Origin: an uncultured Planctomycetia bacterium
GTDB taxonomy: Bacteria > Omnitrophota > Gorgyraeia > 2-02-FULL-51-18
Direction: 5' to 3'
NCBI GenBank assembly: GCA_964402785.1
Contig: CAYODQ010000001.1
Coordinates: 18,124-82,123, forward strand
Length of the DNA: 64,000 bases
The stretch's first letter is position 1. Each line of letters starts with the position of its first letter. The notes below the pieces were generated by a model, which was given only the letters and a program-made list of their open reading frames with translations, ran no database searches and had not been told where the DNA came from. Of the stretch, positions 5,483 through 61,790 are shown piece by piece. A program made the position numbers and the translations under genes.

Positions 5483-5843
5483 AAAAGAAGAAATGAACGA
5501 GTTTTTGACAGAAGACCTGATCAGTCTCAAAGAGGCAGCCGGCCTTCTGGAAGTAACCGAGGCAGAAGTCAAAGAGCTGATCGAAAAACATCGTGTTCCG
5601 TCGCATCAAGTGGCGGGAGCCTTTTTGCGTTTCAAGCGCAAAGAGATCGAAGGCCTCAAGAATAAATGGCGTATCGAACGCGAACTTTTCCCCAAAAAAT
5701 CGGATCATTTTGTGCATGAGGCATCGCTGGCAAAGGCTAGTTTTTTTGACCGCATTGCGGATTTTTGGCATTTCAACGATTTTTATATCCTTTGTTCGAT
5801 CTTGATCATGCTGCTTTTGTATGTTGTTCTGTCCTACCAATAA
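5472..5843 (+). CDS. Excisionase-family (MerR-like) helix-turn-helix protein with C-terminal transmembrane helix
   Basis: Internal ATG at 5472 (11-nt overlap with tsaD); LISLKEAAGLLEVTEAEVKELIEKHRVPSHQVAGAFLRFKRKEIEGL resembles excisionase-type DNA-binding domains; C-terminal hydrophobic stretch ILCSILIMLLLYVVL. Confidence 0.55.
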   Translation: MQIKKEEMNEFLTEDLISLKEAAGLLEVTEAEVKELIEKHRVPSHQVAGAFLRFKRKEIEGLKNKWRIERELFPKKSDHFVHEASLAKASFFDRIADFWHFNDFYILCSILIMLLLYVVLSYQ

Positions 5844-5905
5844 AAAGGCCATAAAATAAAAAGTCACAAAGTCACACGTTACAAGGTCATAATAAAAAAT
5901 AATCG

Positions 5906-12030: not shown

Positions 12031-12237
12031 ATGAAAGAGAAGATACATCCCAAATACAACGAGACGACGATCACATGCAATTGTGGCAATGTGATCCACA
12101 CGCGCTCGACCAAGCCGAATATCCGCGTGGAGATCTGCGCCAACTGTCATCCGTTTTTCACGGGACAACATAAGCTTATCGACAGCGCCGGACGCGTCGA
12201 GAAGTTCCAAAAGAGATACAATAAGAAGGCAAACTAA
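12031..12237 (+). CDS. rpmE: 50S ribosomal protein L31
   Basis: [29 protein letters not shown] zinc-ribbon L31. Confidence 0.95.
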
Positions 12238-12384
12238 AAATCTGCTGAAAAAGCCTCATCTGCGTTGTTGTGCCACTCGTTCGCTTGTGCCTGCCTGCCG
12301 ACAGGCAGGCGACGCTATTCCCATAGCGCCTCCGCGCTCACTCGTGCACGCCTAGCATATGAGGCTTTTTGAGCAGATTTTTAG
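12238..12384. repeat. MITE-like palindromic intergenic repeat, copy A (terminal inverted repeats ATCTGCTGAAAAAGCCTCAT / ATGAGGCTTTTTGAGCAGAT), carrying a 22-nt near-perfect palindrome core GCCTGCCTGCCGACAGGCAGGC at 12289-12310
   Basis: Long hairpin directly after rpmE stop; the reverse complement aligns along its length with the element at 61664-61790 except for the core insertion. Confidence 0.7.
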
Positions 12385-12422
12385 TTTTCTCTATATATAA
12401 ATTTTTATAATCGATTGATCTG

Positions 12423-16573: not shown

Positions 16574-16592
16574 GGCAGTCAGGAGTTTAAAA

Positions 16593-16967
16593 ATGCATCC
16601 GCTAGTCAAGGCTATTGAGGCCGAACAAACAAAAAAAGATGTGCCAGCATTCTCGATCGGAGATACGGTTCGGGTGTCGGTCCGCGTGGAAGAAGGCGAC
16701 AAGATCCGTACACAGGTTTACGAAGGAACCGTGATGCGTAAAAAGGGCTCAGGGATCCGCGCCACTTTCACAGTGCGCAGAGTTTCTTTTGGTGAAGGTG
16801 TGGAGCGCCATTTTCCGGTTCATTCACCCACAGTTCAGAAGATAGAGGTGGTTCGTAAGGGCAAGGTGCGTCGCGCCAAGCTTTACTATCTTAGAAAATC
16901 TACCGGAAAGAGAAATCGTATTGAGGAAGAAAAGCGAGAAGAGGCTCCAGCAGCTTCTTCTGCATGA
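16593..16967 (+). CDS. rplS: 50S ribosomal protein L19
   Basis: [35 protein letters not shown]. Confidence 0.95.
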
Positions 16968-21705: not shown

Positions 21706-21737
21706 CTCTTTTTATATTTCTCTCTCACGCCTATCAT

Positions 21738-22024
21738 GTAGTCGGTAACAGGTTTCGCTTTTGCCCACCCTTGCCCTTTTCCTCGCATAGCTTTGTCATA
21801 AATGGCATGGACCCCTGCCTGCCGGCAGGCAGGCTCGCCAAAAGTCCGTTGGCCTCGAAGGTACACTCGTGCGGTATGCCTAAAAGAGCCATGACGCACT
21901 CGCGCTATATTAAAGGCTCGGCCAATGGGACTTTCAAGTGGCGTCTCCATTGCCATTTATGACAAAGCTATAAGCGCTCGGAAAAGGCCGGGATTGGTCA
22001 AAAACGAAACCTGTTACCGACTAG
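21738..22024. repeat. Giant imperfect palindrome G1 (about 290 bp, nested inverted repeats) containing a perfectly palindromic 20-mer CCTGCCTGCCGGCAGGCAGG at 21814-21833
   Basis: Outer arms GTAGTCGGTAACAGGTTTCGCTTTTG / CAAAAACGAAACCTGTTACCGACTA; inner arms CTTTGTCATAAATGGCATGG / CCATTGCCATTTATGACAAAG. Confidence 0.65.
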
Positions 22025-22092
22025 ATGCTAGACGGGCACTCGGCTATTAATTGATCTATCAGGGCGAGTGCCAGTTTAGAGCCTAAGCCGTT

Positions 22093-22333
22093 GCTCGATC
22101 TTTGTTTTCTTTGTTCCCGGCCCTTTTGGAGCGCTTATGGTTTTGTTGTAAGTCGTTTGGAGACGGCACGAGCCCTGAGTTTAGAGTCTAGCGAGCTGGA
22201 AATCCACCGGACGCTTCGCCCTGTTGATATAGGACTACTACCGAAGCGTCTTGGATTTTGTCCGAGGATCCAAATGACTTACAACAAAACCATGCGAGAA
22301 AAGGGGTAAGGGCAAAGAAAATAAAGATCGAGC
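22093..22333. repeat. Giant imperfect palindrome G2 (about 240 bp), related to G1 (shared CCTTTTCCGAGCGCTTAT-like arm motif)
   Basis: Arms GCTCGATCTTTGTTTTCTTTG..CCTTTTGGAGCGCTTATGGTTTTGTTGTAAGTC / GACTTACAACAAAACCATGCGAGAAAAGG..CAAAGAAAATAAAGATCGAGC. Confidence 0.6.
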
Positions 22334-22378
22334 GACGGCTTGCATCTATGACTTAGAGAGATAATTGAAAGGTTCTTC

Positions 22379-60616: not shown

Positions 60617-61239
60617 TGATGCCAAGGATTATTTTGCAGGGCGGATGGGTGATGATCCCTATTATTTTGGGGTCGGTCGTGGCGTTGGGTTTTGTGCTGG
60701 AAAGAGCCTGGTATTTCTCTTCGATCCGGTTGAATCTTCAGAGATTTACAGATGAAATTTTTTCATCTGTAAAACAGGGGCGATTGGATGATGCGGTAGA
60801 ACTTTGCCGGAAGACAAGGCATCCATTGGGCCGCGTATTCGAGCAAGGCCTAGCGTACGCTGATGAAGATCGGGATGAGATCGAACGGATCATGGAGCGC
60901 GAAGGAAACCGCCAGATCTTGCTGGTCGAAAAAAACCTGACTTCCCTTGTGGTGGTGATCGGCGTTGAGCCCCTGCTGGGGTTTTTGGGCACTATCCTGG
61001 GTTTGATCCAGGCTTTCATGGTTTGGGAGAAATTCTCAACCTCGGTCACCGTGAGTACACTCGCTGCCGGTATCTATCAGGCCATGATCACAACAGCGGC
61101 CGGACTCATCGTGGCGATCCCGTATTACGTGATCTACAATATTTTTCTCTCCAAGGTGAATTCTACGGCTCGCGATATCAATCATTATGGTGATGAGCTG
61201 ATCAGTGTTCTTGTGAAACTTAAAAAGGTATCAAAATGA
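60613..61239 (+). CDS. exbB: MotA/TolQ/ExbB proton-channel family protein
   Basis: 3-TM architecture, conserved TTAAGLIVAIP segment. Confidence 0.88.
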   Translation: MMMPRIILQGGWVMIPIILGSVVALGFVLERAWYFSSIRLNLQRFTDEIFSSVKQGRLDDAVELCRKTRHPLGRVFEQGLAYADEDRDEIERIMEREGNRQILLVEKNLTSLVVVIGVEPLLGFLGTILGLIQAFMVWEKFSTSVTVSTLAAGIYQAMITTAAGLIVAIPYYVIYNIFLSKVNSTARDINHYGDELISVLVKLKKVSK

Positions 61240-61658
61240 AGGTTCAGGTATCCAAAAAATCGTTTCTATCCCTCGAATCGGTTGCCATGACGGATATCGT
61301 GATGAATTTATTCATATTCTTTTTTATCAGCTTTAGCTTGCTTTACACATTCAATCCCAACAAAGAATCCAAGATCGAGGTCAAGCTTCCCGAGGGCGTC
61401 ACTCAAAAGGAAGGGAAATCGGAAGAGCCTCTTGTGATATCGATCACCGCAGGAAACGAGATCTTTGTGGGGTCTACCCGCGTATTGCCCGACGCCATCA
61501 AAAAAGAAATAGAAAAAAGAAGTCCTTCCGAAAAAAAATCAGGGGTCCTGGTCAAATCCGATAAATCCGCCTCGGTGGATTATCTGGTCAAAGCTCTGGA
61601 CGCCGCCAAACAAGCCGGAATTCAGAAGCTAGGCGTCGCCATCCAACAGCAAGGGTAA
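61236..61658 (+). CDS. exbD: ExbD/TolR biopolymer transport protein
   Basis: N-terminal TM MTDIVMNLFIFFFISF, periplasmic ExbD fold motifs. Confidence 0.85.
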   Translation: MKVQVSKKSFLSLESVAMTDIVMNLFIFFFISFSLLYTFNPNKESKIEVKLPEGVTQKEGKSEEPLVISITAGNEIFVGSTRVLPDAIKKEIEKRSPSEKKSGVLVKSDKSASVDYLVKALDAAKQAGIQKLGVAIQQQG

Positions 61659-61663
61659 CAGAT

Positions 61664-61790
61664 AATAATCAGCTTAAAAGCCTCAGATGCGAGGCGCGAG
61701 AGAGCGAGCGAGGAGGCGCTATGGTAATAGCGTCGCACAAGCGAACGAGCTGTGTAACGACGCAGATGAGGCTTTTTGAGCTGATTATTA
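61664..61790. repeat. MITE-like palindromic intergenic repeat, copy B (same family as 12238-12384, opposite orientation, lacks the palindromic core insert)
   Basis: TIRs ATCAGCTTAAAAGCCTCAG / AGATGAGGCTTTTTGAGCTGAT; internal GAGGAGGCGCTATGGTAATAGCGTCGCACAAGCGAACGAG matches reverse complement of copy A. Confidence 0.7.

Follow-up and report, generated by a model that had tools for sequence, protein, structure and literature searches.

Among the small intergenic repeats of bacteria, the Correia elements (NEMIS) of Neisseria are 100-160 bp long, carry terminal inverted repeats (TIRs) of approximately 24-26 bp, end in TA and lie near gene ends (PMC2229807). Correia elements, in their 107- and 155-bp forms, share TIRs, TA termini and long stem-loop transcripts with the 127-bp ERIC sequences and with RUP; ERIC sequences are co-transcribed, occur in either orientation, have larger variants produced by insertion at fixed internal sites, and show orientation-dependent effects on messenger RNA (mRNA) stability (PMC2229807). 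REPINs form single-strand hairpins of approximately 100 nt in which conserved parts lie beside parts conserved in their pairing only, with frequent compensatory changes; they are mobilized by RAYT, persist, and are inherited vertically within a lineage (PMC3116915). Here we analyzed a 64,000-nt stretch (the window) of contig CAYODQ010000001.1 (positions 18,124 to 82,123) from an uncultured bacterium placed in the Omnitrophota, which contains two copies, A and B, of a palindromic repeat at the 3′ ends of rpmE and exbD. The copies are best filed as a new family of small intergenic repeats in Candidatus Omnitrophota, resembling REPINs and miniature transposable elements with inverted repeats (MITEs). 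We lean towards reading the unit as a non-autonomous, non-coding mobile repeat of this kind, approximately 128 nt long, lodged at gene 3′ ends and often supplying the stop codon.

The family resembles Correia/NEMIS elements in its size, TIRs, TA termini, intergenic position near gene ends and occurrence in long and short forms. It differs from them in that the length difference is due to an independent 20-nt micro-palindrome, not a 50-bp family-specific segment, and in having an asymmetric, strand-specific core that hardly varies between species. Like ERIC/IRU, it is an imperfect palindrome of approximately 127 nt that occurs in either orientation and has internal-insertion variants, but there is no sequence relationship. 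Whereas ERIC has TIRs of approximately 7 bp and is palindromic throughout, the Omnitrophota family has long arms, a non-palindromic core and a GNRA-capped hairpin. With REPINs it shares a long single-strand hairpin, compensatory change, and conserved parts next to pairing-only parts. A REPIN, however, consists of two inverted REPs arranged symmetrically, while the Omnitrophota hairpin is asymmetric at its center, and a RAYT (Y1/HUH) gene was not seen among the 20 open reading frames scanned in the window, itself only a 64-kb part of the source genome.

Two inverted copies of a dispersed repeat

The initial annotation had described copies A and B as one palindromic family in opposite orientation. 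Alignment of copy B with the reverse complement of copy A bore this out: the two aligned end to end at approximately 85-90% identity, with a local score of 131.5 against 16.6 ± 2.8 (maximum 29.5) for 1000 shuffles. The same-strand alignment scored 45, the palindromic arms alone matching. Copies A and B are also linked by inverted-repeat pairs I1 and I2, with 61- and 56-nt arms that are 84-85% complementary. The shuffles and a window-wide comparison exclude a chance likeness of GC-rich hairpins.

By the limits of family homology, copy B is 128 nt long and copy A 149 nt (129 + 20), and both differ by 1-3 nt from the limits first proposed. The sole long gap between them is 20 nt, between GTCG and CACAAG of copy B, so that copy B does lack the core insert and the insertion point is sharply defined; since GC lies on either side of it, it can be placed to within 1-2 nt. 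The arms of copy A form a further inverted repeat (I6, 33-nt arms, 94% complementary), and the predicted RNA fold of copy B has a free energy of -62.1 kcal/mol (z = -7.9). Both copies lie, as had been noted, at gene 3′ ends, and the gene assignments hold: rpmE (12031-12237) matches Ribosomal_L31 and exbD (61236-61658) matches ExbD in Pfam. Among related loci (designated by the letter L), the independent metagenome assembly L035 is identical to copy A base for base, including the insert, and L001 is identical to copy B apart from two single-nucleotide polymorphisms. The observation of two related, inverted copies is thus confirmed and its structural reading was right, while the initial interpretation as a whole is partly supported (see below).

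The family was traced with an exact 22-mer of the central hairpin in genome bins and a second 21-mer in metagenome contigs. The 22-mer retrieved 14 loci in six bins, with five exact-core copies in one bin and three in each of two others. The label Candidatus Omnitrophota is borne by three of the bins and “uncultured Planctomycetia” by the other three, which we treat as the same group. The 21-mer retrieved 12 metagenome contigs. The closest source-named PrfA and ExbD homologues are mostly labelled Omnitrophica/Omnitrophota. Dispersed copies sit at unrelated flanks, and 23 full copies align almost without indels (alignment A3). A covariance model (R1) built from these 23 members recovered copy B with 130.9 bits (E = 2.5e-31) and copy A with 116.7 bits (E = 1.3e-27) in cmsearch, and found no third copy in the window. 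Two scans of viral contigs gave 0 matches to the family.

No Rfam family matched in the window at the gathering score, or around copy B at E<=10, and matches at the related loci were confined to tRNA and tmRNA. A literature search on Omnitrophota repeats or RNA motifs returned nothing relevant. In relation to Rfam and the literature searched, the family is therefore new.

Two variants (L010:373-517 and L013:4686-4800; 81 and 49 bits with R1) keep the terminal stem P1 and the junctions CAGAUGC.AGGCG / GCAACG..GCAGAUG but have another P3 hairpin or a shortened core, so the family belongs to a wider superfamily. Several copies lie at contig ends or runs of N (L002:2985-3065, L013:4664-4673, and the contig ends of L008 and L009), and the repeat appears to confuse or break short-read assemblies.

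A conserved fold around an asymmetric core

The anatomy of the element is described on the better-folding strand (B strand), which reads GGAGGCGCTATGGNAATAGCGTC. The unit is a long hairpin in which inverted terminal arms of approximately 25-30 nt (28-33 nt in the window copies), forming P1, surround an asymmetric core of 84-85 nt (Table 1). P1 consists of approximately 25 pairs in four runs, with CAGAUGC opposite GCAGAUG(AG) at its inner end, and contains side-by-side tandem G.A/A.G pairs in 17 of 23 copies. Across the 23 copies, P1 (A3 columns 5-34/127-154) is 94% paired, with changes on both sides in 20 of its 25 pairs. P2 has six pairs, including a second tandem G.A in 11 of 23 copies, and is Watson-Crick in others (GCGGGC/GCCCGC, GCCCGU/ACGGGC and GCGUGU/ACACGC). 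P3 is an invariant 8-bp hairpin (99.5% paired), whose second pair (61/78) is G.U in 15 copies and A-U in eight. Its loop is GGGA in 16 copies, GGUA in three, GGAA in three and GAGA in one, conforming to GNRA in 20 of 23. The internal loops GAG(U/A)GAGCGCGGAG and GCACAAGCGAACGA are nearly invariant. From CAGATGC to GCAGATG, the core spans exactly 84 nt in 21 of the 25 distinct copies; the exceptions are the window lineage (85 nt), copy A (105 nt, owing to its insert), L014 (141 nt, owing to another nested insertion) and the L013 variant (65 nt).

Table 1. Positions of the two copies, their parts and associated features in the window
Feature	Position	Strand	Remarks
Copy A	12235-12383	-	Folding strand is -; palindrome reaches 12231-12387
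rpmE stop codon TAA	12235-12237	+	Terminal triplet of copy A
Nested micro-palindrome in copy A	12290-12309		CCTGCCTGCCGACAGGCAGG on the + strand; absent from copy B and L028
Copy B	61663-61790	+	Better-folding (B) strand is +; matches the model and aligns with reverse-complemented copy A
exbD stop codon TAA	61656-61658	+	4 nt upstream of copy B
P1, 5′ arm	61663-61690	+	TAATAATCAGCTTAAAAGCCTCAGATGC; A-run 61676-61679, G.A step 61686-61687; pairs with 61762-61790
Asymmetric core	61691-61761	+	Junction, P2, P3 and internal loops GAG.GAGCGNGGAG / GCACAAGCGAACGA; (near-)invariant A3 columns
P3 hairpin	61715-61734	+	GGCGCTAT-GGTA-ATAGCGTC; loop 61723-61726
Empty insertion point	61735-61736	+	Where copy A bears the 20-nt palindrome; also empty in ortholog L028
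P1, 3′ arm	61762-61790	+	GCAGATGAGGCTTTTTGAGCTGATTATTA; G.A step 61765-61766, T5 run 61773-61777
Second micro-palindrome	21814-21833		Perfect, CCTGCCTGCCGGCAGGCAGG; within another large inverted-repeat element

Over the whole fold, 92.0% of cells are paired, compared with 79.4% in column shuffles and 33-45% in slid controls, and both sides change in 25 of 39 pairs; none of 500 shuffles reached the observed values. G.U pairs outnumber A.C pairs 43 to 15 (28 to 15 excluding the P3 pair), and the L013 variant adds three further G.U pairs on the same strand, indicating that the fold belongs to one strand. Both strands fold far better than shuffled sequence (z about -7 to -8), and R1 scores approximately 40-50 bits on the reverse strand against 117-154 bits on the forward strand. 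The stem covariation supports a conserved fold; the copies are related repeats from which the alignment itself derives, and it is therefore not in itself proof of an RNA.

The junction base after AUGC (A3 column 35; 61691 in copy B) covaries with the two bases preceding the 3′ GC (columns 125-126; 61759-61760): U occurs with AC, G with AA, and A with CA or CG, in 22 of 24 copies and also between the window and L028 orthologues. These positions are Watson-Crick on neither strand, which rejects a base pair, and the covariation may mark subfamilies or reflect a tertiary contact.

The only recurrent open reading frame (ORF) is a 15-codon ATG frame, and a small peptide (GGAGG-N4-ATG plus 15 codons) was considered and rejected: codon 2 varies in a GNRA-like manner and the frame is broken in both window copies, by 1-nt and 20-nt indels. 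No ORF is conserved in the family.

These features raise the alternative that the element is a functional structured RNA (a cis-acting element, small RNA or ribozyme), for example one acting in 3′-end processing or protection of tRNA operons and mRNAs, with the dispersed copies as a secondary MITE-like expansion. It is favored by the covariation of P1 and P2, which enclose internal loops that do not vary, by the RNA-typical motifs on one strand (tandem G.A pairs and a GNRA-like loop), by the excess of G.U over A.C pairs, by the fixed core span, by the conservation of the core above neighboring coding DNA, and by the copies described below that lie directly at the 3′ end of an operon's final tRNA and have a unique, compensated P1. 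However, REPIN hairpins of single-stranded DNA (ssDNA) show the same kind of compensatory change (PMC3116915). At approximately 10 of the 14 protein genes that end at the element, and at every tRNA, the strand that folds better is the antisense one, so that read-through transcription would mostly yield the other strand. No promoter-like site was found in or beside the copies, and the lack of an Rfam match also counts against it. The orientation differs between copies A and B and flips at an orthologous locus without obvious consequence, and the element is missing at both window loci in more distant relatives, and is thus dispensable there. We regard a primary RNA function as possible, though on the unlikely side.

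Placement and history of the copies

The copies fall into two classes by position. Members of the dispersed class, including copies A and B, have the arm consensus TAACAGTCTGCTCAAAAAGCCTCAGATGC and lie between tightly packed genes in either orientation. Most of them end in TA(A/G)...(T/C)TA, and in at least eight copies the TA-containing end triplet is the stop codon of the gene running into the element (copy A, L028, L032, L005, where it is mutated to TGA, L020, L022, L024 and L026). The same variant with a duplicated left arm occurs at two unrelated loci (L022 and L023), indicating that the unit is copied as a whole.

Members of the tRNA-adjacent class lie 0-3 nt from the 3′ end of a tRNA gene or of a duplicated tRNA 3′ fragment, after the tRNA that closes a run (L025, Arg-Lys; L013, Ala-Leu; L027 and L006, Leu(CAG); L015, Met), and their B strand is always antisense to the tRNA. 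Their arms open with ATTTT(T)CG and are then wholly locus-specific yet complementary, around the same core. Orthologous pairs across species, with diverged and compensated arms, were found at tRNA-Leu(CAG) (L006/L027) and at tRNA-Lys (L010/L025). The conserved module (tandem G.A in P1, P2, P3, loops and 84-nt span) might be pictured as a new functional nucleic-acid fold at the 3′ ends of Omnitrophota tRNA operons, serving as a processing signal, a ribozyme or the recognition structure of a tRNA-targeting mobile system, with stop-codon-hugging copies such as A and B as its mobilized offspring; this proposal seems to us doubtful.

A second conserved GC-rich element of approximately 130 nt adjoins family copies at three of these loci (L006:5050-5195, L013:4880-5010 and L010:520-640). 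It follows the pattern ...GCGCCGACGCC...GTCGGCGCG..GCCGACCCG.AGCGAGCACAGCC..., has no Rfam match, and lies between inverted or duplicated fragments of the T-arm and 3′ end of the neighboring tRNA, an arrangement that hints at recombination or integration where tRNAs end.

Some known elements choose hairpins or terminators as their targets, such as IS1397, which inserts into REPs, and class C group II introns, which insert after terminators. By analogy, only the approximately 84-nt core might be mobile and enter the loops of pre-existing hairpins downstream of genes, the outer stems being host sequence, and the wholly different outer stems of tRNA-adjacent copies around the same core would fit such behavior. 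Nevertheless, the outer arm TAACAGTCTGCTCAAAAAGCC is common to dispersed copies from unrelated loci and from different species. The tRNA-adjacent arms share the outer end ATTTT(T)CG...CGAAAAT, and so look like old diverged homologues, not unrelated host hairpins. L033 and L017 have no comparable long hairpin at their empty loci. Mobility of the core alone is therefore very improbable.

The initial annotation had also suggested that both copies double as terminators, a plausible role that the analysis did not bear out: a consensus scan finds no terminator at either copy, the “loop” is the 84-nt structured core, and the T5 run is base-paired with the A-run in a longer stem. A more general form of the idea holds that the copies are bidirectional intrinsic terminators, alike by duplication or convergence, with termination as the selected function. 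The copies do lie between the end of a transcription unit and the next promoter (rho-rpmE and then prfA; cca-exbB-exbD and then HTH_17), a -35/-10-like stretch after copy B is conserved and kept in L033 without the element, the inner P1 sequence GCCTCA...TGAGGC is flanked by A4-5 and T5 in dispersed copies, and both strands fold very stably. Set against this, tRNA-adjacent members have the order T-run, stem, A-run, which is wrong for intrinsic termination in either direction; the alignment statistics exclude chance and convergence; Rho is encoded next door; and the invariant asymmetric core, its fixed length and its conservation across species would be left unexplained. We consider termination improbable as the selected function. 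For copies A and B, termination, or cutting of the 25-bp stem by RNase III, would be a reasonable and plausible secondary effect.

Comparison of orthologous loci gives a partial history of both copies. At rpmE-prfA, L028 (PrfA 89% identical) has the element in the same place and the same orientation (135.7 bits). The search for an empty site proposed in the initial annotation was successful here: the L028 element lacks the 20-nt palindrome at exactly the junction in question (...GTTCGCTTGT is followed directly by GCGACGC...), and the insert was therefore acquired later, as an event of its own. The P1 stems of the window and L028 differ by a double compensatory change (ATCTGC/GCAGAT vs. ATTCGC/GCGAAT). 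In L029, L030 and L017 (PrfA 80-74% identical), the rpmE-prfA spacers are unrelated (111, 151 and 70 nt) and give no model match.

At exbD-HTH_17, the element is present in the window, L001 and L032. L032, from the same assembly as L028 (ExbD 94% identical), has the same locus-specific outer arm TAATAATCAGCT, with the core on the opposite strand (117.8 bits, minus strand). Its element is 89.8% identical to the reverse complement of the window element and 64% identical on the same strand, and the exbD stop falls in its terminal TAATAA. We infer that L032 underwent an in-place inversion in which the two arms probably recombined or allowed template switching; an assembly artefact is possible on this 2.7-kb contig. 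The element is absent at exbD-HTH_17 in L033 and L034 (76%), which keep the promoter-like stretch ahead of the HTH gene. The empty loci come from distant relatives and do not fix the empty sites to the base.

In nucleotide sequence, the genes that flank the element are less conserved than the element itself, at both loci. Between the window and L028, identity is 90.2% for the element, 82.7% for rpmE, 78.1% for prfA and about 74% for the spacer. Between the window and L032, it is 89.8% for the element (as the reverse complement), 72-82% for exbB, exbD and HTH_17, and 85% for the spacer.

The mobile-repeat reading rests on the size of the unit, its arms, TA-type ends, dispersal, gain and loss, the copy-and-paste variant and the lack of coding capacity, which together account for its MITE-like placement. 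In keeping with MITEs, the unit is non-coding, below 200-300 bp and bounded by TIRs, its copies are dispersed, and it is present or absent at orthologous sites. Its compensatory changes are like those of REPINs. On all these grounds, we read it as copied by an enzyme that recognizes a folded single strand. Such a trans-acting enzyme would recognize the core and arms as ssDNA or RNA and copy the element, and in so compact a genome copies would survive solely at the 3′ ends of genes. With termini TA(A/G)...(T/C)TA, a copy would fall on the stop codon of the neighboring gene or form it anew, compatible with TA-targeted insertion. Once the element is inserted, recombination between its arms, or template switching from one arm to the other, could reverse the core, and the element would be open to invasion by smaller palindromes such as the 20-nt insert of copy A. 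If transcribed, P1 with its A5/T5 tracts would probably act as a 3′-end hairpin (terminator, stabilizer or RNase III site), a role that we would regard as a side effect, not the defining function.

Several observations weigh against a mobile repeat. Transposase, RAYT and reverse transcriptase were absent among the 20 window ORFs scanned with Pfam, of which 14 belong to ordinary housekeeping families and six have no match. No autonomous element, longer element or solo end with the same arms was found in the 274 kb examined. With TA palindromic and the empty sites imprecise, a target duplication is inseparable from the inverted repeat. The core is near-invariant across species (approximately 90% identity vs. 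72-83% for adjacent coding DNA), a conservation that is inflated by retrieval with exact core 21-23-mers, although positions outside these patterns are also conserved. The tRNA-adjacent arms, in turn, have diverged to saturation while remaining complementary. A selfish MITE is expected to conserve its ends and let its middle drift, and the conservation pattern of the family is the reverse of what typical MITEs show. All tRNA-adjacent copies share a single, fixed orientation, which points to locus-specific function or targeting, not random insertion.

Micro-palindromes and the compact genome

The extra 20 nt of copy A is a separate micro-palindrome, CCTGCCTGCCGRCAGGCAGG. The same 18-20 nt palindrome occurs at a second site in the window (21814, where zero matches are expected in shuffles), at L017:866 (866-883) and at L025:5832. 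The initial account of an insertion in copy A with a precise junction thus stands and can be extended, the insert being an independent dispersed palindrome. The L017 palindrome is in frame (…RRLPAGRQVS…) in a gene that looks tsaD-like by eye, no family search having been made on this ORF, and the L025 palindrome lies near the start of a membrane-protein ORF. No consistent target duplication was found at the four copies seen. L014 has a different insertion, a 57-nt pair of small hairpins, elsewhere in the family core, and the related loci are rich in similar small GC-rich hairpins.

Rickettsia palindromic elements are in-frame insertions in coding sequence. Like these and the cyanobacterial small dispersed repeats (SDRs), the 20-nt insert, taken alone, is a tiny palindrome found inside repeats and in frame in coding sequence, but it is unrelated to them in sequence. 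SDRs are also mentioned in the REPIN study cited above (PMC3116915).

The second window copy of the micro-palindrome lies in the first of two adjacent large nested inverted-repeat elements (21728-22034 and 22085-22341), which fill a gap of approximately 1 kb between genes for a SpoIIE-type phosphatase and an MgsA-type ATPase. Their arms (55 + 21 nt and 43 + 25 nt) are 81-100% complementary, and their outer arms are mutually related (AAAAGGG.AAGGG...). No further copies of these nested elements were found in the other DNA examined. At L010:55-290, a duplicated 5′ part of tRNA-Lys is broken by small hairpin repeats of the form CCGCC-ACAGAAC.T.-GGCGG, one of which forms P3 of the variant in L010:373-517; these constitute another micro-palindrome family.

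Most intergenic gaps in the window are shorter than 30 nt, and 4-nt overlaps between a gene start and the preceding stop are common. Approximately 60 of 73 window ORFs are on the + strand, the GC skew is positive throughout (0.01-0.14), and no tRNA genes were found in positions 1-64000. Two gaps without a long ORF, 16574-16920 and 5483-5905, have 78% and 70% nucleotide identity to L017 (12856-13179 and 1836-2077, respectively); they have no Rfam match and are probably short genes or non-coding elements.

Taken together, the family displays small-repeat dynamics at three levels in a compact genome: it inserts at stop codons, is inverted in place, and is invaded by a 20-nt micro-palindrome that is also found in frame within genes. 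A core better conserved than the surrounding genes, together with the fixed position and orientation of some copies beside tRNA genes, makes the element a candidate for a new single-strand recognition structure, in ssDNA transposition or in RNA function. For the uncultured Omnitrophota, whose non-coding DNA has next to no annotation, R1 provides a ready model with which a recurrent intergenic element may be masked or annotated.

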